From NCBI RefSeq assembly GCF_056712565.1, contig NZ_CM160072.1: 64,000 nucleotides of DNA, one strand, 5' to 3'. The notes beneath the pieces were generated by a model. The model made no database searches. It had not been told where the DNA came from and saw nothing but the letters and a program-made list of their open reading frames with translations. Positions 4,181 through 58,679 of this stretch are shown here, piece by piece. Position numbers and translations under genes: made by a program. Every line of letters begins with the position of its first letter. The first letter of the stretch is position 1.

Positions 4181-4936
4181 TCAGCTTTTGTTATATAAGG
4201 CTTTCGTCTTTGAGGTAGTACGTTGGCGTAAATGCCAGGATAATTCAGCCCAAAAGCCAGGCACGTGCAATATCTGCCGTTGGACTTTTTTGGCGTCAGC
4301 ACACAATTCCATATTATTGGTGGTAGATACCCCACCCATGGAAAATTCAGACACCAGACCATTGAGTTTTTTAAATGCATAACCGGCTTTATACATTTTG
4401 GCCGCCAGCGCGTAGTCGGACGAAACTTTATATTCCAGGTCATAACGCCATTTTTTCAAGCCGGATACCGGGAAAAATATCGCCTGATGACTGGCGGGCA
4501 GGCTGTGATAAATATACCAGCCCGGTTTGGCGCTACGTTTAATTTTATGCCCGTCGCCAAAATCCAGCAGCGCATCGCCAGTGATCATCACGTTATCTTT
4601 TTGTACTTTTAACTTACGGACAAAATTTGCGGCATCCTGATGAAAAATATCACCTGAGTTGAGAAACAACGCGAACTTGCCTTGTGCCATCGCAATGCCT
4701 TTGTTCATGGCGTCGTAGATACCGTTATCTGGCTCGCTGACAAAGCGTAGGTTATAGATACCCTTGAGATTTTCCAGGTACTCACAGGTGCCGTCATTGG
4801 AACCGCCATCGACAACAATCCATTCGAAGCTGATATCGTCCGCCTGCGCCAGATGCGCCAGATGCGCCAGCGAGGCGTGTGTTTTGACTATCCCTGCGAG
4901 GTTACGAAACGCGACAGTGATTATGCTAAGCAACAT
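4181..4936 (-). CDS. wcaE: Colanic acid glycosyltransferase WcaE (GT2)
   Basis: 251-aa [15 protein letters not shown]...DGGSNDGT; cluster position. Confidence 0.85.
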
Positions 4937-6164: not shown

Positions 6165-7356
6165 ACTCCTCCAGCATCTGTTGTCCACTGTAGGCGGCAC
6201 GGCTGCGCTGGCTGAACTCAGCCAGCGTGGTACCAAATACCGCCTGCGCGATTTCCGGTTTGCTTAACTGGACCAGTTGCAGCACGTCTTCTTCACTGAC
6301 GGTTTTACCGCCGGATTTTTGCAGCACTTCCCGCGCCGCGTCGCTATGGGTGGCAATCACCGGCACGCCAATCGATAGCGCCTCACACAAAATTAGCGGG
6401 TAGTTATCGACGCGAGAACTGAATACCAGCGCATCCATCTGATTGAGCGCGCTCATCAACTTGCGCTTGTCAGTTTCAAAGCCGTGATTAACCACGTTGC
6501 CAGCGGTGAACGGCGAGAACTTACCAAAGGTATGCAGTTCGATTTTGTCGCCCAGCGCCATCATCTCGCGTACCAGTTGCTGGTTAGTTTTGCCGTCGTA
6601 ACGCAGGTCATGCGCTACCACCGCGATTTTCGGCTTGCCCTGAGTTTCGCGCACCGGAGGCAAGTCCGCCAGAATCGCTTCGGTTGCCATATCAATGCCA
6701 TTATTGATAATCCGGCAACGCCCTGGACCGTACAGACTATTGAAAGCATCAGCCACATGCTGGCTGGGGGAAATAAACTGACAGCCCAGCGCCAGCATCT
6801 CACGGAATAACTGGCGTTTGCCCGCCACCAGCTGGTGTGCGCGATCAATCTTCACCGGCGGATAATTATTTAAGGTCGGGCATTTCTGGCAGCCCGTTTT
6901 CCAGCCTTCGCAACCGTCGGTAAAGGCGCAGCGTCCGGTAACGCTCCAGTGATCGTGCAGCGTCCAGACCAGAGTGACATCCGGTTTGTGGTTTTTCACC
7001 TTTTCGCAAAAGCGCACCACGCTCTTAAGATTTAGCCAGTAGCTGTGCAGCACATGAAAATGCAGAACCACCGGGCCCGGTGTGCGAGTAATGGTGCGAT
7101 ATAACTCATTGAAATTGCCAAACAGATCGCGATTAAACAGACGAAACAGGGCAATGTTCGCCATCGCGGTCATCTGCGGCGTATGTTTGATGACCTGCGG
7201 ATAGTTTTGATTGCTGACGCTCTCTTTGCCGCCTTTGCCGTAGCCGTAGACAAAATGTGACGCCAGCCCCTGTTGCAGCGCACGCTGGTGGAGATCTAAC
7301 GCCACACCTGCCGCCCCGCCTTCCGCCAGTCGCACATTAAATTGCAAAATATTCAT
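6139..7356 (-). CDS. wcaC: Colanic acid glycosyltransferase WcaC (GT1/GT4-like)
   Basis: 405-aa ORF MNILQFNVRLAEGGAAGVALDLH; cluster position. Confidence 0.85.
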   Translation of the reverse strand: MNILQFNVRLAEGGAAGVALDLHQRALQQGLASHFVYGYGKGGKESVSNQNYPQVIKHTPQMTAMANIALFRLFNRDLFGNFNELYRTITRTPGPVVLHFHVLHSYWLNLKSVVRFCEKVKNHKPDVTLVWTLHDHWSVTGRCAFTDGCEGWKTGCQKCPTLNNYPPVKIDRAHQLVAGKRQLFREMLALGCQFISPSQHVADAFNSLYGPGRCRIINNGIDMATEAILADLPPVRETQGKPKIAVVAHDLRYDGKTNQQLVREMMALGDKIELHTFGKFSPFTAGNVVNHGFETDKRKLMSALNQMDALVFSSRVDNYPLILCEALSIGVPVIATHSDAAREVLQKSGGKTVSEEDVLQLVQLSKPEIAQAVFGTTLAEFSQRSRAAYSGQQMLEEYVNFYQNL

Positions 7357-8811: not shown

Positions 8812-10974
8812 TTATTTCGCGTCCGACTTATATTCGTATTCGTAATAGCCATAATCCTGATACGCGCTGGCGCGGCGGAAGATGGAGTTCAGAATCACCC
8901 CTTTCACCGGAATACCGTTTTGCTCAAAGCGGCTCAGACTGGTTTCCACTTCTTTCAATGTGTTGACCGCATAACGCGCCACCATTAACGTGGTTCCGAC
9001 ATGACGACCAACAATTGCGGCATCGGTCACTGCCAGAATCGGCGGCGTATCAATCAACACCAGGTCGTAGTTTTTACTCGCCCAGTTCACCAGTTCGGCA
9101 AAGCGTTCGCTCATCAACAGTTCAGAAGGATTTGGCGGTACCTGACCGCGCGGGATCAGGTCAAATTTGGCAATAGAGGTCGGTTTAGCCGCGGTAGTAA
9201 TATCGCCCTGACCAATCAGAATTTCCGACAGGCCATTAACGTTATTGGTGCCCAACAGCTCGTGGGTATAACCTTTGCGCATATCGCAGTCGATCAACAA
9301 CACCCGTTTATTGGTCTGACTGATCACCGCCGCCAGGTTGGCGCAGACAAAGGTTTTACCGATTGACGGGCTAACCCCGGTCATCATCAACACATTGTTC
9401 TGCGCCTGCATCATCGCGAAGTGCAGACTGGTACGCAGACTGCGGATGGCTTCAATCGCCAGATCGGTTGGATTCCCCACCGCCAGTAGCTGGCTCTGTT
9501 TATAGCGTTTAATCCCTTTGATGGTTTTGACGCTATCGCGCGCTTTCTGCCATTCCGACAACGGGATGCTGGCATAGACGCTGATACCGTGTTCTTCCAG
9601 CACCTGCGGGCTTTCGATGCCACGATTAAACAACGAGCGCAGCAGTACACCCACGATAGAGAGCATCAGGCCAAGGATAATCGCGCCGAGGATAATCAGC
9701 CCTTTCTTCGGTTTCAGTACACCTGGCTGGGTGATTGCCGGGTCAACAATGCGCACATCGCCGACGGTGCTGGCTTCGGTGATTTTCAGCTCCTGCTCTT
9801 TATTCAGCAGCTGCATATAGACCTGCTGACCAGACTCGACATCGCGGGTCAGACGGACAATCTCCTGCTGGGTTTTCGGCATCGCCGTTACGCGACCATT
9901 AAGTTTGGCTTTTTCGTCTTCCAGCGCCTGCCGTTTCTCCAGCAGCGTGCGATACGCCGGGTGAACTTTGGTGTACAGCTTGGAGATTTCCGCTTCTTTA
10001 AAGGTCAGTTCGTTCAATTGTGCGTCGATGTTCACCATCGAATCGAGCACCGCTTTCGCTTCCAGCGGCAGATCAACAGAATCTTTATCCTGACGGAAGG
10101 CATTCAATTTATTTTCGGCAACATCAAGGCGGCTACGTACTTCCGGTAACTGTTGCGCGAGGAAGGCGAGGCTTTTCGACGCTTCCGCGGATTTGCGCTC
10201 AATATTTTGTTCCTGATAGTTACGGGCGATGCTGTTAAGAATGTCGCGGATCTGTTCGCGATCTTCACCGGTATAAGTCAGGCTCAGTACGCCTGCGTCT
10301 TTGCCGTTCTCCGTTACCGTCAGGCTGTTTTGCAGTTGATTGATCATCCCCAGCGTGGAGTATTTGGTGACGGTAAACTCACTGCCCGGGCGGGCGTGAA
10401 TGGCTTCAACCATCAGCGTGACGCCTTCTTTTTTCAGCATCTGGCCCGCTTGCCCACGGGCGCTAAAGCCGCCATCGCTGCTCAGAGTGTAGTTTTTATC
10501 GTCCAGCACATTAAGCGTAAACACCTGATCCGCCATCTCTTTCGGGCGGTTAAAGGTGGTCACTTTTACCGTCTCGTTCTGGCGTCCCATCAGGCGATCC
10601 CAGCCCGCACCGAAAATCGGGAACGTGTTTTTGCTCACTGCAATATCGAGGTCGAGATCGTCCACCGTTTTACCAAGCACCAGACGCGAACGAATCAACT
10701 GGATCTCGGCGTCCGATGCTGGCGGTTTGTTGGCTAATGCCGAACCAATGTCCTGCACTAACGAATTGCCGCTGTTTTGCTCGATTTGTACCAGTGCGTC
10801 GGCACTATAAATCGGCGTGGCGAAGAAGGTGTAAACCACGGCACAGAGGGCAAATACGGCGGTGATGCCAATTACCCACCAGCGCGCTTCAATGACGGTG
10901 CCGACCAGGCGACCAATATCGATTTCATCACTGCCCGTTACCGGAGCGGCATGTTGTTTTACTTTTTCTGTCAT
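8812..10974 (-). CDS. wzc: Tyrosine autokinase / polysaccharide co-polymerase Wzc
   Basis: ORF 8812..11010; start set at MTEKVKQHAAPVTGSDEIDIGRL (~720 aa); Walker A GVSPSIGKT; C-terminal Tyr-rich tail YQDYGYYEYEYKSDAK. Confidence 0.9.
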   Translation of the reverse strand: MTEKVKQHAAPVTGSDEIDIGRLVGTVIEARWWVIGITAVFALCAVVYTFFATPIYSADALVQIEQNSGNSLVQDIGSALANKPPASDAEIQLIRSRLVLGKTVDDLDLDIAVSKNTFPIFGAGWDRLMGRQNETVKVTTFNRPKEMADQVFTLNVLDDKNYTLSSDGGFSARGQAGQMLKKEGVTLMVEAIHARPGSEFTVTKYSTLGMINQLQNSLTVTENGKDAGVLSLTYTGEDREQIRDILNSIARNYQEQNIERKSAEASKSLAFLAQQLPEVRSRLDVAENKLNAFRQDKDSVDLPLEAKAVLDSMVNIDAQLNELTFKEAEISKLYTKVHPAYRTLLEKRQALEDEKAKLNGRVTAMPKTQQEIVRLTRDVESGQQVYMQLLNKEQELKITEASTVGDVRIVDPAITQPGVLKPKKGLIILGAIILGLMLSIVGVLLRSLFNRGIESPQVLEEHGISVYASIPLSEWQKARDSVKTIKGIKRYKQSQLLAVGNPTDLAIEAIRSLRTSLHFAMMQAQNNVLMMTGVSPSIGKTFVCANLAAVISQTNKRVLLIDCDMRKGYTHELLGTNNVNGLSEILIGQGDITTAAKPTSIAKFDLIPRGQVPPNPSELLMSERFAELVNWASKNYDLVLIDTPPILAVTDAAIVGRHVGTTLMVARYAVNTLKEVETSLSRFEQNGIPVKGVILNSIFRRASAYQDYGYYEYEYKSDAK

Positions 10975-52406: not shown

Positions 52407-52925
52407 TCACAGGCCGATATTGCGGCGGTGTTGCTCCAGCCGGTCGACGCCGTTCACCTTCTCAATCATGTTGATGGTGTCGATTTCGACCAGCTCCTTA
52501 CCGTCCATCGTCAGCCGGAAATAGGTGCAGACCACGGAGATTTTCGACTCGGTGTCTTCTCCCTGTTTGCCCTCGCCGGTGTCGATTTCTTTCTGACGTC
52601 CACGCATGACCACCTCGACGGCCACCGTTTCGCCGGTATCGTCGCGCTGGTAAGAGCCTGCAAAACGAATCGGTACGGAATCCACACCGGTTGCGGCGTA
52701 AAGCTCCCAGATAACCGAATCCGGGAAGCCACCGAGCGACCACTCCATTGACAGCGCATCGTCATCAAGGCCGAGGTCTACCGGTGCGCTGCCGTTCATC
52801 CCCGCACCGCGATAGTTTTCGAGCTTACGGGTCAGTTTTGGTAGCGTGACGGACTTCGCGACGCCCTGATAGCTGTAGCCGTTCAGAAAGACGTTCATTA
52901 ACTTGAGTTTGCGCGGCATTGCCAT
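52407..52925 (-). CDS. FII: P2 gpFII-like tail tube protein
   Basis: 172-aa ORF MAMPRKLKLMNVFLNGYSYQGVAKSV. Confidence 0.9.
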   Translation of the reverse strand: MAMPRKLKLMNVFLNGYSYQGVAKSVTLPKLTRKLENYRGAGMNGSAPVDLGLDDDALSMEWSLGGFPDSVIWELYAATGVDSVPIRFAGSYQRDDTGETVAVEVVMRGRQKEIDTGEGKQGEDTESKISVVCTYFRLTMDGKELVEIDTINMIEKVNGVDRLEQHRRNIGL

Positions 52926-54130
52926 CGGTCAGGCTCCTTATAATTGCTGTTAACCGAGGTGACCAGATTTGCCAGGTATTTATCGGTAATACGCTGGCGC
53001 AGGGTCAGGTTTTCAAGAGGAGGCACCGGTGTATAGTCGTAGTCGATATACAGTTTTCCGGCCTTGAGGGTTTCCGCATCGTTGGATTCTTCGCTGAACC
53101 AGCAGGTCGCATCCACGATATAGCCGTTTGTTTTCAGCTCACGGAATTTGGCATTGATGCCGTCAACGATGTCGCGAATCAGCGTTGCGGTGATGGGCTT
53201 GTCCACCGCCCACATGTGCGCCTCAGCCATCGTGTCAGCCAGTACCTGCGCGGTGCGGGTGTAGTTTTCAAAGAGGAACAGCGGGTCATCAGAGCAGGTA
53301 CGGTTACCCCAGAATCGGAAACCGTCGCGGCGAATCAGCGTAGTGACGCCTGACTCGTTAAGCAGGTCAGCATCGGTGCCGGACTCCTGCAAATCCCAGA
53401 ATACAGATGCGCTGATGCCGGTAACACCGTTTACCCCGACGTTGGACAGCGTTTTATGCCAGCCCTGCTCCTGGTCGATTTTAGCGCGCAGACCCAGCGC
53501 ACGGGCGGTGGCATACGCGGTAGCGGTGGTACTGGTGACCGTATCCCATGCGAGGAAATCCGGCCAGATGACCATCAGCTCACGCTGGCTGAAATTCTGG
53601 CGGTAGGCTTTCACCTCGGAAATGGTCTTACAGCCCCATGCGCTGATATATCCGAAAGCGCGCAGCTTCTGACAGACGGATGCCAGTGCAACAGCCACCT
53701 CTTTGGTATCCAGTCCCGGCACACCGAGAATACGCGGTTTAACACCGGTTACCGACTCCGCCGCCAGCAGGGCTTTTAGTCCGGTGTACTGACCGTTTTC
53801 GTCGGTGGTGCCGATGATATTGGAAACGGTCTGCGCGAGTTTCGTTTCCTCGTCATCACCGGTGCAGTCTTCCACGCGCACGACAACGGTGACCGGTTTT
53901 GACTGGTCAGCGATGGCCTGCAACGATGCCGCCAGCGTGCCTTTTTTACCGGCCTTTGCAATTGCGCTTTGCACATTGGTAATCAGCACCGGTTTATTGA
54001 GGGGGAAGGTTTCCGCATCCGCATCGCTGGCCGTGCAGACCATGCCGACAATGGCAGTGGATACGGTGGAAATGACGCGGGTGCCGTCGTTAATCTCCAG
54101 CACCTGCACGCCATGATGATAGTCACTCAT
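52898..54130 (-). CDS. FI: P2 gpFI-like tail sheath protein
   Basis: 410-aa ORF MSDYHHGVQVLEINDGTRVISTVSTAIVGMV. Confidence 0.9.
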   Translation of the reverse strand: MSDYHHGVQVLEINDGTRVISTVSTAIVGMVCTASDADAETFPLNKPVLITNVQSAIAKAGKKGTLAASLQAIADQSKPVTVVVRVEDCTGDDEETKLAQTVSNIIGTTDENGQYTGLKALLAAESVTGVKPRILGVPGLDTKEVAVALASVCQKLRAFGYISAWGCKTISEVKAYRQNFSQRELMVIWPDFLAWDTVTSTTATAYATARALGLRAKIDQEQGWHKTLSNVGVNGVTGISASVFWDLQESGTDADLLNESGVTTLIRRDGFRFWGNRTCSDDPLFLFENYTRTAQVLADTMAEAHMWAVDKPITATLIRDIVDGINAKFRELKTNGYIVDATCWFSEESNDAETLKAGKLYIDYDYTPVPPLENLTLRQRITDKYLANLVTSVNSNYKEPDRWQCRANSS

Positions 54131-54316: not shown

Positions 54317-54334
54317 CTGACAGTCTGCTTTGAG
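54317..54334 (+). repeat. Copy 1 of ~16-bp motif CTGACAGTCTGSTYTG (ctgacagtctgctttgag)
   Basis: Shares a 13-mer with copy 3 and an 11-mer with copy 2. Confidence 0.7.
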
Positions 54335-54460
54335 CGAAAAGTGGACATTAGAGTTACAAAAGCAAGTTTAAATCATCCAAAATATTACAATGTCCTTATC
54401 TATCTGATATCGTTATGATAAAAAGCTCCTGAATATAATCGATAGTAGGTGGTTATTTCC

Positions 54461-54838
54461 ATGAAATCAATTTTAGAGGTCTTTACTCAAGGAAATACTA
54501 AAGAAAAACTGGCTGTTATCGCCGATCTCACAACCATTGCGGGAATATCGATTGCAACTATTATTGCTGGTTTGTTAACCCTAGTTGCAAAAACAGATAA
54601 ACTAGATGTTGGAAATCTGTTTGGAGTTGTCATAATATCTCTGCTCGGATTGGCTGGTGTTTGCTGTTTTGTGGCCTTATTTATTTGGGTTATAACCCAA
54701 ATGTCTAAACCATGGGGAACACCTCGGGGGGTTCAGCCCTTAGTTAAGTGTGCTATTTCCCTTATCTTTATCTGTATGTTTTTGCTGGCTGTCTTTACAT
54801 TTTATGAGTTTATTTCTTCGATGAGCATACGCTATTGA
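54461..54838 (+). CDS. Small three-TM-helix membrane protein of unknown function (prophage cargo)
   Basis: ORF 54449..54838; ATG at 54461 (MKSILEVFTQGN); three hydrophobic helices; AT-rich; convergent with the recombinase gene. Confidence 0.5.
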   Translation: MKSILEVFTQGNTKEKLAVIADLTTIAGISIATIIAGLLTLVAKTDKLDVGNLFGVVIISLLGLAGVCCFVALFIWVITQMSKPWGTPRGVQPLVKCAISLIFICMFLLAVFTFYEFISSMSIRY

Positions 54839-54860: not shown

Positions 54861-55547
54861 TTAAAAGAGACCTTCTATATCGACTTCAATGCCCAAATAA
54901 CGGACTGTGCTTTCCAGTTTCTTATGGCCCAACAGAAGTTGGATCACCCGGAGACTCTTGGTTTTCTTGTAGATTAAGTAAGGTTTTGTTCTTCTCATGG
55001 AATGTGTGCTGTACAGCGAATCTTCGAGACCAAGCTTTTCTACCCACCCATGAAAAATTCGGTTGTATTGCCGGGTTGATATATGGTGGTTAGTTCCGAC
55101 CCGAGAGCGGAACAGGAAGCCTTTACTATGCCAGTTGCCGAGCTTTATCAATGCAGTAACCGCTTCCCTTGTCCCTTTGGTTATCTCAAATTGGACAGGG
55201 CTGCCGGTTTTCTGTTGCAACACCGTTGCTCTGCTTGAGACAGAACTGCCATATGCAGCATCTGATACTTTGAGTTTGACCAAATCACAGCCCCGTAGCT
55301 TAGTGTCCAAAGCCATGTTGAACAGAGCTAGATCGCGTGTTTTACCTTCCAACTCAAGTCTAATCCGGATCCCCCAGATATGAAATATCTGAAGTGGCCT
55401 TTTTTGACCGATGGTACGGTCTTTATTCCACGGTGACGTTTTCATATTCAAATCTCCTGCAATGTGGGAGATTTGAGTATGGTTGTCTCTCAAGAGCGAA
55501 AATAAGTCAACTATCACTAGTTGTTGCGCATGTACGTATTCTGTCAA
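54861..55547 (-). CDS. Short tyrosine-type site-specific recombinase (catalytic domain with only ~50-aa N-terminal extension)
   Basis: 228-aa ORF with the tyrosine-recombinase motif series: R in DTKLRGCDL, HSMRRT (H-x-x-R), LLGH, Y in TVRYLG; starts 4 nt after the stop of the upstream 280-aa gene. Confidence 0.6.
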   Translation of the reverse strand: MTEYVHAQQLVIVDLFSLLRDNHTQISHIAGDLNMKTSPWNKDRTIGQKRPLQIFHIWGIRIRLELEGKTRDLALFNMALDTKLRGCDLVKLKVSDAAYGSSVSSRATVLQQKTGSPVQFEITKGTREAVTALIKLGNWHSKGFLFRSRVGTNHHISTRQYNRIFHGWVEKLGLEDSLYSTHSMRRTKPYLIYKKTKSLRVIQLLLGHKKLESTVRYLGIEVDIEGLF

Positions 55548-56291
55548 TTAATTATTGACAATCATCAATTCTGGAATGATCAAAATCATCATATCGAATT
55601 ATAGTCTGGTTGACTGTATCTATTGTTGGTGTCATTTCTGTTATAATATCCTGATAACCTAAAGAGTTAAATACATTTACTAAGGCCTCACACCGAAGGG
55701 CCGTAGCAATTACAAAATTATAAATTGCCAGCCGTTTATTTTCTTGTTTAACTGCAAGAATGAATTCGATAGCAGTATTTTCATCACTTTGGATTGCATT
55801 ATATAGAGATACTATATTTACCATATCATCAGAGAATGTATGTATTGAATCACAAAGGGGAACGTAATGGGCATGATAGTGTGTTTCCCAGCCAATTAAT
55901 TCAAAAAGTCTTCTGGTTCCTGGATATTCAGGTGTATTTGGCCACAATCTATTAAATAGATCAGTTAGTTCTTTTCCCATGCGAATCCTTTCATTTGCTG
56001 CTGGATTAGTCATTCCTTTGGATTTTAAACACTCCAGCCACCGTTTTCCATTACTATGAACTAATTTCTTACTAGCCTTGAGTAATGCTTGTGCATTTTC
56101 GCCATCATCTATTGCTATATAAAATTGATTGGCAGCCTGTTCTATTATAACCCTAGCTAATACTTCCGATGCTGAAAAGGCTCCTATATTCAAAGAAGAG
56201 ATAGCCTGATTACTAAGTTCATTCAGTACATTAAAGTACTGTAAGACCATCAATTTTTGTTCCACACCCTTTAGGTTGTCTGGATTTGCCC

Positions 56292-57197
56292 CTATATTTC
56301 CAGACACCTGTTATCACTTAACCCATTACTGGCTTGCTGCCGTAGATATTCCCGTGGCGAGCGATAACCCAGTGCACTATGCGGATGCCATTCGTTATAA
56401 TGCTCGAACGCCTCTGCAAGGTTCTTTGCTGCCGTTAACCCGTCTGGTTTGGGCATGACACTGATGTAGTCACGCTTTATCGTTTTCACGAAGCTCTCTG
56501 CTATGCCGTTACTCTCCGGACTCCGCACCGCCGTGCTCTTCGGTTCAAGCCCCAACATCCGGGCAAACTGCCGTGTTTCATTAGCCCGGTAGCATGAACC
56601 ATTATCCGTCAGCCACTCTACTGGAGACGCCGGAAGCTCGTTGCCGAAGCGGCGTTCCACCGCTCCCAGCATGACGTCCTGTACTGTTTCACTGTTGAAG
56701 CCGCCCGTAGTGACCGCCCAGTGCAGTGCCTCACGGTCACAGCAGTCCAGCGCGAACGTGACTCGCAGTTTTTCTCCGTTATCACAGCGGAACTCGAACC
56801 CGTCAGAGCACCATCGCTGATTACTTTCTTTCACAGCCACTCTGCCTGTATGTGCCCGTTTCGATGGCGGTACAGCAGGTTTTCGCTCAAGCAACAGCGC
56901 ATTCTGGCGCATGATCCGGTAAACACGTTTGGCATTGATCGCAGGCATACCATCAAGTTCTGCCTGTCTGCGAAGCAGCGCCCATACCCGACGATAACCA
57001 TACGTGGGCAGCTCTCCGATAACATGGTGTATACGGAGAAGCACATCCGTATCATCAGTGTGACGACTGCGGCGGCCATCCATCCAGTCATCGGTTCGTC
57101 TGAGAATGACGTGCAACTGCGCACGCGACACCCGGAGACAACGGCTGACTAAGCTTACTCCCCATCCCCGGGCAATAAGGGCGCGTGCGCTATCCAC
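56292..57197 (-). CDS. insD: IS2 transposase OrfB (InsD, DDE catalytic domain)
   Basis: 301-aa [41 protein letters not shown]. Confidence 0.9.
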
Positions 57198-57520
57198 TTT
57201 TTTGCCCGTCCATATTCAACGGCTTCTTTGAGGAGTTCATTTTCCATCGTTTTCTTGCCGAGCAGGCGCTGGAGTTCTTTAATCTGCTTCATGGCGGCAG
57301 CAAGTTCAGAGGCAGGAACAACCTGTTCTCCGGCGGCGACAGCAGTAAGACTTCCTTCCTGGTATTGCTTACGCCAGAGAAATAACTGGCTGGCTGCTAC
57401 ACCATGTTGCCGGGCAACGAGGGAGACCGTCATCCCTGGTTCAAAGCTCTGCTGAACAATTGCGATCTTTTCCTGTGTGGTACGCCGTCTGCGTTTCTCC
57501 GGTCCTAAGACATCAATCAT
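57155..57520 (-). CDS. insC: IS2 OrfA (InsC, HTH); fused to OrfB by -1 frameshift in the 57155..57197 overlap
   Basis: ORF 57155..57565; start set at [26 protein letters not shown]. Confidence 0.85.
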
Positions 57521-57768
57521 CTGCTCTCCAATGACTAGTCTAAAAACTAGTATTAAGACTATCACTTAAATAAGTGATATTGGTTGTCTGGAGATTCAGG
57601 GGGCCAGTCTATTGTCTATTTTATTTTTATGCTCCTCAAATTTTGCATGGATATATTTATTTATCGCGGCTATTTTTTTTACATCTTCGTCAAGATCAAA
57701 CGGGCAACGTCCAAACAATTCTTTTTTCATATATTTCTCCTGTTGTACAAGCTTCCATAAGTTGGCAG

Positions 57769-57774: not shown

Positions 57775-57962
57775 CACTGAAGATTACCTATAAATAGCTG
57801 TGCGGGATAGCAGATCAGTGCAAGAAGTACAACCAAGTGAACTGTGCGTATTCAGATACCTGGCCTAACGTTCGCGATAGCCGTCCCCTGCACGAAGCCA
57901 TATATTAGATGTATTAGCTCAGACCTTATCTGACAGGTTGAGTAGGTAGAATCTAATCAAAG

Positions 57963-57980
57963 CTGACAGTCTGGTTTGGA
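57963..57980 (+). repeat. Copy 2 of the motif (ctgacagtctggtttgga), same orientation as copy 1
   Basis: Direct repeat of copy 1; together they bracket the whole cargo module. Confidence 0.7.
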
Positions 57981-58080
57981 CTGTGAGTTCAACCGATGGA
58001 TGCAACACACAGCGATCTACGGACATTACTAGCATAGCTGTGTATTAATCATCGGGAAGCAGGTCAGTCCGCTCCTAGCA

Positions 58081-58096
58081 CAGAGCAGACTGTCAG
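58081..58096 (-). repeat. Copy 3 of the motif, inverted (minus strand reads ctgacagtctgctctg)
   Basis: Inverted relative to copies 1 and 2; 102 bp from copy 2; sits in the loop of a 10-bp perfect stem (58076..58085 with 58108..58117). Confidence 0.7.
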
Positions 58097-58151
58097 ATTA
58101 GGCTTTACTCTGTGCTATAGATACGTTAGCTCACTCCAGAGATCATACAAC

Positions 58152-58679
58152 TTATTGCGGCATTTCCGGCCATTCAGGATTTGCAGGATCCACACGGCTG
58201 ACCAGAACACTGTAGCGTTCCCATGCTTCCAGTCGGCTACGCTCCTCATCTGTTGCCATATTCAGTCTGACAGAGCGTTCCAGTGGCTGAATGATAGTTT
58301 CAGCTTCGGAAAGCAAAGCTGACTTCTGTAATTCCGCCAGTTGCAGCTGTTCGTCTGCCGTATAAATCCGCTTAATCACGGCACCATCCTTAAACATCCA
58401 TTTACCTGAGTCATCAGCACGTCGGTTGGCGGTAATATCAGGAACCTCGACAACGCTAAAACCTTCAGGGTTGAGCGTTGAAGCATCTCTGGTGATGCCG
58501 ACAATTATATTATTCTCATCGTAAACAATCTTTATCGTGTCTTCCTGAAAATTACTTACTTCCTCATACCAGTTTTTTCCCTCTTCGGACCATAACCAGA
58601 TAACATCAAAATTTTTTGTCAGTTGATATTGGGCAACAGTTTTTGGATTACCCGCAGTAATATTTTTTAAATGCTGCAT
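58152..58679 (-). CDS. G: P2 gpG-like tail fibre assembly protein
   Basis: 175-aa ORF immediately downstream of the tail fibre gene. Confidence 0.85.

Follow-up and report, generated by a model that had tools for sequence, protein, structure and literature searches.

The DNA considered here is a 64,000-nt stretch of contig NZ_CM160072.1 (assembly GCF_056712565.1), hereafter called the window, and our subject is a short tyrosine recombinase gene on its minus strand (54861-55445) together with the recombination sites that surround it. The gene is part of the cargo at the accessory locus between genes G and FI ("Z/fun") of a P2-like prophage, where the minus strand carries, in order, a DUF5677 gene split by IS2, the recombinase gene, and a convergent gene for a small membrane protein. 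This cargo lies between two sites, both read on the minus strand: site A on the FI side (54323-54346, GTCTGCTTT-GAGCGA-AAAGTGGAC) and site B on the G side (58067-58090, GTCCGCTCC-TAGCAC-AGAGCAGAC). Comparison with related loci suggests that sites of these two types delimit movable gene cassettes and that the family to which the gene belongs is their candidate recombinase.

The minus-strand open reading frame (ORF) 54861-55547 encodes 228 aa from a TTG start and contains the motifs DTKLRGCDL, HSMRRT, LLGH, and VRYLG, on which an earlier note on this DNA had based its description of an unusually short tyrosine recombinase with a complete catalytic motif set. We discarded the TTG-extended version and place the true gene at 54861-55445, starting from the ATG at 55445 and encoding 194 aa. 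RefSeq starts the identical gene of Escherichia coli ATCC 11775 at the ATG equivalent to window position 55445 (WP_001447266.1, "tyrosine-type recombinase/integrase"), all homologues have the N-terminus M-x-x-S-P-W-N-K at this ATG position, and a GGAG Shine-Dalgarno sequence lies ahead of it. Because of the RefSeq start, the family N-termini, and the conserved non-coding features described below, the 5' part of the TTG ORF (55446-55547, minus strand, 102 nt) reads as a non-coding leader that carries a conserved hairpin and a recombination site.

Profile searches revealed a Pfam PF00589 match (E = 1.5e-17) of 64.4 bits against a gathering cut-off of 27.1, which covers profile positions 21-166 of 172 and residues 35-184 of the protein in its true numbering and places it in the superfamily by gathering score. 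In an alignment of 21 family sequences, R51, K79, H148, R151, H174, and Y183 were invariant, giving the catalytic R-K-H-x-x-R-H/W-Y set, and the family profile aligned R51, H148, R151, H174, and Y183 with the catalytic residues of XerD, which we take to be R148, H244, R247, H270, and Y279. The motif set read from the ORF was therefore confirmed, with no catalytic residue substituted. The note had also placed the start of the catalytic domain about 50 residues from the N-terminus; the domain does lie near the N-terminus, but with the true start at ATG 55445 it begins at about residues 20-35, and the catalytic arginine itself is R51.

To place the protein among its relatives, we searched 5.8 billion proteins and obtained approximately 8000 clusters (90% identity), nearly all of them 200-203 aa long with 72-92% identity. 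Homologues exist in the thousands, with 196-211 aa and the catalytic domain only, in Escherichia, Proteus, Providencia, Pantoea, Idiomarina, and other genera. When representatives clustered at 50% identity were searched exhaustively with a profile, 1401 proteins reached E <= 1e-30; the best 150 of them were 121-296 aa long, with none of 350-400 aa. The family is almost certainly natively short (~200 aa) and devoid of arm-binding and core-binding domains. The missing domains and FimB/FimE-like size claimed earlier were thus borne out (194 aa here and 200 aa in the family, against ~200 aa and no separate DNA-binding domain in FimB/FimE), and what had seemed unusually short is typical of a large family.

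None of the curated profiles for FimB/FimE, XerC/XerD/XerA, or IntI reached its cut-off, so that the relationships proposed from size were not found at this level. For FimB/FimE, model NF007371 scored 22.2 bits (cut-off 222) and model NF007370 13.8 bits (cut-off 221), the IntI models NF011946 and TIGR02249 gave 17.8 bits against 435 and 265, and the XerC and XerD models gave 42.7 and 25 bits against 335 and 330, with only the C-terminal half of each Xer model matched. PHROG integrase profiles matched in their catalytic part only, and with ~200 aa the homologues fall short of the ~330-400 aa of arm-binding phage integrases (lambda or P2 Int type). Among solved structures, the family profile matched only the catalytic domains of XerD (E = 7e-6), XerA, and XerC, and a single-sequence search of the same structures gave no match.

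Comparison of the homologous loci revealed that in at least 15 unrelated flanking contexts the family member is carried in a unit of ~720 bp that has a 24-bp core site on either side. Conservation sets in at TCGCTC, ~55 nt ahead of the ATG, and ceases at GTGCCA, ~35 nt past the stop codon and just beyond a small hairpin; semi-conserved GTCYGC and GCRGAC arms lie directly outside the unit, and the DNA farther out is unrelated. Loci that are alike on one flank of the gene differ fully on the other, and this holds for each side independently. By its sequence, each boundary of the unit reads as a classical core site in which 9-bp inverted arms (consensus GTCYGCTYY) surround a 6-bp spacer, namely TCGCTC in site A, upstream of the recombinase gene, and GTGCCA in site B, downstream of it. 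Intact members end in the native C-terminus ...GIEVDDALEISESIEV, followed by the hairpin and site B. When each locus was oriented by its recombinase gene, the 33 distinct strict sites all shared the orientation of the gene. The arm pattern GTCYGC-N12-GCRGAC, allowing one mismatch, had 6 matches in the window against 0.58 expected, and in the recombinase-selected loci it occurred in dozens more places, almost all with spacer A or B. The settings comprised hot spots of SXT/R391-like integrative and conjugative elements (ICEs) adjoining ars, mer, and integron cargo, Providencia transfer-messenger RNA islands, an E. coli Nissle island, a Qin-like prophage, a plasmid, a ypjA island, and metagenomic and viral contigs.

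The window retains the upstream end of this unit, with the features of the family leader (a site A about 55 nt upstream and a hairpin at the Shine-Dalgarno sequence) at 55443-55499. Site A' (55485-55511, minus strand) has GTCTCTCAA as its inner arm and GAGCGA as its spacer, which reads TCGCTC on the gene strand; its outer arm, AAATAAGTCAAC (55500-55511), is degenerate. Beside it lies a conserved palindrome, the inverted repeat ACTCAAATCTCC...GGAGATTTGA (55443-55481, minus strand), which pairs the region of the Shine-Dalgarno sequence and start codon. This 12-bp perfect palindrome (RNA fold -19.2 kcal/mol, z = -3.2) occurs at the same position in loci L002-L053, and in the Providencia and ICE versions compensatory changes preserve it; its placement suggests that it probably throttles translation of the recombinase or acts as an operator.

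The enzyme had been proposed to act on nearby 16-bp motifs, CTGACAGTCTG..., of which the window has three copies. These motifs consist of a P2-type flank plus an outer arm, and so they do belong to genuine recombination sites; action of the enzyme on them is plausible but unproven, the link being one of association. The exact CTGACAGTCTG sequence was rejected as the enzyme's own site: it was absent from 11 homologous loci, where the common element is the arm GTCYGC plus the spacer, and its CTGACA is P2-type flank outside this shared element.

Several site variants were observed elsewhere in the family. At locus L038, a homologue with 58% identity keeps the hairpin and a B-like site (spacer CGGCCA) at the same place past its stop codon (4630-4660), and a second full site with the CGGCCA spacer lies in inverted orientation 2.1 kb off (6700-6723); this branch of the family may invert DNA instead of moving cassettes. 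In SXT/R391-like ICEs (L002-L007), the variable DNA upstream of traF, including a dfrA-type gene, lies between the B site of the recombinase and an A site (L006 8640-10447, with A at 10424-10447), and the ICE hot-spot cargo may rely on the same A/B system. The B spacer GTGCCA(R) (window 58076-58081, L018 5498-5503) resembles GTGCCAA, presumably the core of the R64 shufflon sfx repeats; the arms differ, and the likeness is possibly a coincidence.

To investigate the distribution of the sites independently of the gene, we searched for a 66-bp composite junction (A-18 nt-B) with the pattern TCGCTC-N3-GCRGAC-N18-GTCYGC-N3-GTGCCA. Exact matches were found in 79 viral contigs and in 99 genome stretches from one-genome-per-species collections, against a chance expectation estimated at < 0.01. 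All but one of the genome stretches are Enterobacterales-named, with genera including Rahnella, Pantoea, Citrobacter, Klebsiella, Serratia, Yersinia, and Erwinia; the lone exception, L167, is a 4.1-kb contig labeled uncultured Veillonella that has three composite junctions, and its assignment likely reflects mis-binning or contamination. Across 167 distinct junctions, the outer arms were conserved though the search left them unconstrained, and the flanks held no information. Arrays reach four junctions, and 170 distinct B...A cassettes had a median interior of 1.4 kb and encoded 141 protein clusters. PADLOC analysis of nine cassette proteins identified one Cap2 (E1-E2) of the cyclic-oligonucleotide-based anti-phage signaling system (CBASS) and one DarG, the other seven having no match. 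The recombinase gene always occupies the position of a junction (A → gene → B), in place of the 18-nt linker, and never that of a cassette (B → cargo → A). In the viral contigs (L057-L135), the neighbors of the junctions were mostly lambdoid replication, nin-region, and lysis genes, with one 343-aa family present in 32 loci; lambdoid prophages, besides P2, therefore host arrays.

Evidence for recombination at these sites came from comparisons of loci. P2 prophage L055 has only the membrane-protein cassette and an A site, GTCTGCTTT-GAGCGA-AAAGTGGAC, in the role of attB. P2 prophage L054, whose flanks are 94-96% identical to those of L055, has 897 extra bp, comprising a DUF6650 gene and a B-18 nt-A junction, inserted between GTCTGCTTT-GAGCGA-TGAACGGAC and GTCCGCTGT-GAGCGA-AAAGTGGAC, so that the arms are swapped relative to L055. 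This is the attB/attL/attR pattern that a circular cassette would leave after a crossover in or beside the spacer. Copies of the DUF6650 cassette in the P2 hot spot, an O111:H8 island, and a paoD-adjacent site share 96-97% identity, whereas the copy in a fourth backbone, a CP4-like island, has 83%; in each of the four, the outer ends of A and B are the exact limits of the homology. These comparisons, together with the spread of the composite junction, show that recombination occurs at A and B, with the crossover in or next to the spacer, and that cassettes insert along with a junction. We regard it as very likely that A and B are real cassette recombination sites.

The link from these sites to an enzyme is more indirect, and from its place in the conserved unit we consider the family of the window gene to be probably, though by no means surely, the recombinase of A and B. 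Junction-selected loci are enriched for the gene, which, intact or as a pseudogene, was found within 7 of the 99 genome loci (795 kb in total) and 3 of the 79 viral loci; the retention of a hairpin and a B-like site by the 58% identical homologue at L038 also favors the link, and the only other recombinases that recurred beside junctions were ordinary P4-type island integrases (9 of 178 loci). Under the proposed mechanism, the ~200-aa enzyme, acting in cis or in trans, would recombine A with A and B with B; since the A and B spacers differ, only these two pairings are expected. Exchange between neighboring junctions would excise a circle of cargo plus junction, and exchange between two molecules would lead to insertion of a circle or, with one crossover at each site, to replacement of one cassette by another. 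The cassettes themselves are cargo with B at one end and A at the other, housed in prophage hot spots, islands, ICEs, and plasmids of Enterobacterales. What connects one cassette to the next is A-18 nt-B or A-recombinase gene-B, and in P2 this role falls to the entire phage backbone.

Several observations weigh against this assignment. The connection between enzyme and sites is inferred from position and enrichment, and 76 of the 79 viral and 92 of the 99 genome loci have no recombinase gene within ~7 kb; since most arrays lack a nearby recombinase, action in trans must be assumed. A protein with no core-binding domain leaves contact with the 9-bp arms unexplained, the inner arms beside the recombinase gene fit the consensus poorly, and an AlphaFold2 model built from the family alignment was poor (predicted local distance difference test score, pLDDT, 55; predicted template modeling score, pTM, 0.42). 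Homologues are present in 941 of 5426 complete E. coli genomes, many family copies are pseudogenes, which suits a dispensable passenger as well as a selfish enzyme, and the window copy, having lost the C-terminal tail of the family, may be inactive.

The same observations bear on the alternative that the recombinase gene is only a passenger, either as cargo or as the partner of DUF5677 in a two-gene accessory or defense module, between sites that belong to XerCD, a phage Int, or some other enzyme. Besides the scarcity of recombinase genes near arrays and the frequency of pseudogenes, this reading is favored by the joint occurrence of the DUF5677 and recombinase genes, at ~87-90% DNA identity, in the P2 prophage and in a lambdoid prophage of enteropathogenic E. 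coli (EPEC) E2348/69. However, most family contexts have unrelated neighbors (AbiGi, ars/mer operons, GSHPx, hypothetical proteins), and a passenger is at odds with the fixed A → gene → B position and constant co-orientation with the sites. Furthermore, the A and B arms are unlike dif or cer, no other recombinase apart from ordinary island integrases is recurrent near the junctions, and in PADLOC neither the recombinase nor DUF5677 had a match, nor did the membrane protein. We consider the passenger explanation unlikely.

The earlier suggestion of a standalone invertase or resolvase-like enzyme fared worse. A FimB/FimE-like invertase would flip a segment between inverted repeats and so cause phase variation of its neighbors, and the size and domain make-up of the protein fit this, as does a weak match to the NCBIfam model "tyrosine-type DNA invertase" (E = 8e-5), but this match reached 22 bits against a cut-off of 222. 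A and reverse-complemented B do form imperfect inverted repeats whose spacers differ at 2 of 6 positions, the P2 sites have been called inverted repeats in a published review, and the two same-spacer sites of the distant homologue locus L038 are inverted; against this, same-spacer sites were direct rather than inverted in every E. coli-type locus (33 of 33), and the at least 25 near-identical E. coli loci were all collinear, with no segment found in both orientations between identical inverted repeats. The changes observed were cassette insertion and change of context, with no inversion. With two different spacers flanking the family members and no indication of an invertase or resolvase among the loci listed, we hold this explanation to be very improbable. 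The last possibility raised, that the gene is what remains of the C-terminal part of a longer phage or island integrase (350-400 aa), agrees with the prophage location, the match to only the catalytic half of PHROG integrase profiles and XerD, and the truncated 3' end, but is refuted because homologues are uniformly ~200 aa, share a conserved N-terminus, Shine-Dalgarno hairpin, and upstream site, and include no longer relative among the 150 best representatives.

Taken together, we lean toward an explanation in which a short recombinase family at A/B junctions moves accessory-gene cassettes and the window holds a decaying copy. The broader proposal, that Enterobacterales possess an unrecognized, integron-like, mechanistically distinct system in which the 200-aa recombinase and sites A and B serve to excise, insert, and exchange accessory and anti-phage cassettes among P2-like and lambdoid prophages, ICE hot spots, islands, and plasmids, is tentative, and we would put it at slightly below an even chance.

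Within the window, the hot spot is bounded by two P2-type genes of the phage backbone on the minus strand, the tail sheath gene FI (52898-54130) and the tail-fiber assembly gene G (58152-58679). P2 backbone homology ends at 54349-54355, 3-9 bp beyond site A, and resumes at 58067, the first position of site B. The spacer of this G-side B site, TAGCAC, is one base from the consensus TGGCAC (= GTGCCA). Four phages, P2_4C9 and 12474II among them, have unrelated cargo between A and B at this hot spot, and P2 itself has degenerate versions of both sites. An inverted repeat, AGCACAGAG...CTCTGTGCT (58076-58118), overlaps site B just downstream of gene G and is probably the terminator of the G operon, sharing sequence with the recombination site. 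On the FI side, a TA insertion at 52939-52940 relative to E. coli ATCC 11775 abolishes the FI stop codon and extends the ORF from 396 to 410 aa, into the start region of FII; a decaying prophage may truly have acquired this mutation, or the change may be an error of sequencing. Two candidate parallels were rejected: the sopE moron of Salmonella phage SopEPhi likewise lies between G and FI, but a search allowing 4 mismatches found neither site there, and the P2 hot spot studied by Rousset et al. 2022 lies elsewhere, beside cos.

The remaining cargo consists of two cassette genes. The small membrane-protein gene (54461-54838, plus strand) encodes 125 aa (phrog_4155), and its cassette occurs alone in the hot spot of other P2 prophages. 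The DUF5677 gene (55552-57730, minus strand; phrog_4167) would encode 280 aa if intact and is split into 55552-56281 and 57618-57730 by an IS2 insertion with an inverted repeat (56282-57611, minus strand), which sits 113 nt into the gene and has duplicated 5-6 bp of its target. The locus is present at 99.8-100% identity in at least 25 complete genomes of E. coli, all collinear and all without IS2, and the E. coli genome search returned no record of the interrupted form; because no such record exists there, the sequences point to a recent, strain-specific insertion. The DUF5677 cassette also contains the third CTGACAGTCTG copy, which belongs to a degenerate A-like site with a 49-nt diverged copy of the P2 FI-side flank (57930-57987) and is present in E2348/69 as well. 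A further DUF5677 gene was observed at L056 2553-3395. A 2025 preprint found DUF5677 to be enriched near defense loci marked by serine recombinases and picked it for testing.

The 3' end of the window recombinase differs from that of its relatives. Codons 1-189 are family-homologous, the homology ending after GIEVD, and the last 5 codons and the stop codon (54861-54878) are foreign, the tail IEGLF and its stop being read from half of the terminator hairpin of the neighboring membrane-protein cassette. Relative to L055, the window keeps this cassette as far as the terminator-hairpin loop (AAAAGAGACCTT-CTAT-AAGGTCTCTTTT) and then continues with recombinase codon 189. The final 12 codons of the family, DDALEISESIEV, vary hardly at all among its members; the window copy has lost them, together with the right arm of the downstream hairpin and site B, and its catalytic residues are intact. 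We rejected this 3' breakpoint as a recombination site; it lies in the hairpin loop, which points to an illegitimate deletion. In the simplest reading of the sequences, an ancestral array FI-A-[membrane cassette]-B-recombinase-A'-[DUF5677 cassette]-B-G would have suffered one deletion that took the distal 325 bp of the membrane cassette, site B, the downstream hairpin, and the last 12 recombinase codons.

Other signs of decay in the window copy are the degenerate outer arm of A' and the IS2 in the adjacent DUF5677 gene. The C-terminal tail of other tyrosine recombinases contacts the neighboring subunit. The window copy is probably inactive or impaired despite its intact catalytic residues, and it is doubtful that it still works. 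The same DUF5677-recombinase pair in the E2348/69 lambdoid prophage has also decayed on the enzyme side: its recombinase is a pseudogene, followed by an intact site B and then an AAA-ATPase/HNH pair.

These results address the question of how accessory and defense genes are swapped rapidly and precisely at phage and island hot spots, and they provide a defined set of parts: two 24-bp sites, a 66-bp composite junction, a B...cargo...A cassette, and one small candidate enzyme. If the broader proposal is true, it would supply the mobilization function that lets phage hot spots swap defense genes quickly. Confirmation would place a second natural cassette platform alongside integrons and give a natural case of two-site cassette exchange, and the compact recombinase might serve as a tool. 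The A and B sites also offer a practical marker for finding new accessory or defense genes: in the small sample covered here, most cassette proteins checked resembled no known defense system.

According to a review, Nilsson, Karlsson and Haggard-Ljungquist 2004 (Mol Biol Evol 21:1) linked inverted repeats at the P2 Z/fun locus to site-specific recombination, and these repeats very probably correspond to the pair at 54323-54346 and 58067-58090. The repeats at Z/fun are to that extent already known; the split into two heterospecific 9-6-9 sites, the A-18 nt-B junction, the arrays across Enterobacterales, and the recombinase candidate come from the present analysis and may or may not coincide with findings of the 2004 study. 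We found no recombinase named for the Z/fun repeats, and a 2026 preprint on swapping at P2/P4 hot spots writes of the recombination processes that they "still need to be elucidated". A literature search of incomplete coverage, and so weak evidence of novelty, gave no account of two-spacer sites, the composite junction, arrays, or this family as candidate enzyme.

Among known systems, FimB and FimE are likewise catalytic-domain-only proteins of ~200 aa, and the first catalytic arginine of FimB lies near residue 50, as in the window recombinase. Unlike FimB/FimE, however, the family falls short of the sequence cut-offs, its sites are not the 9-bp inverted repeats of fimS, and its apparent action is cassette insertion or exchange, no inversion having been detected. 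XerC, XerD, and XerA are the best structural relatives by sequence, with aligned catalytic residues, but the protein here lacks their N-terminal core-binding domain, scores 25-49 bits against cut-offs of 220-335, and is not accompanied by dif-like sites. The pdif modules of Acinetobacter plasmids are discrete gene modules between short core-type sites in many backbones, and they use the host XerC/XerD and alternately inverted sites; A and B, by contrast, are unlike each other in sequence and point the same way, and a dedicated small recombinase gene is embedded between the two. Engineered lox/FRT cassette exchange has the same design as A/B, with two incompatible spacers flanking a cassette.

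The closest analogue is the integron. Both systems combine a tyrosine recombinase with arrays of promiscuous, mostly single-operon cassettes, each with its own composite recombination element, and in both the cassettes insert at a resident site and carry very diverse cargo, including here the anti-phage proteins CBASS Cap2 and DarG. In contrast to the ~320-340 aa of IntI, the enzyme here has ~200 aa and lies far below the IntI models (17.8 bits against 435). No attI with an attC array was found; the cassette arrays are bounded by double-stranded 9-6-9 sites with two spacers, A and B, whereas attC sites are folded single-stranded hairpins, and instead of a fixed platform with a Pc promoter, the arrays lie inside prophages, islands, and ICEs. 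The A/B system works like an integron but stands outside the integron family.

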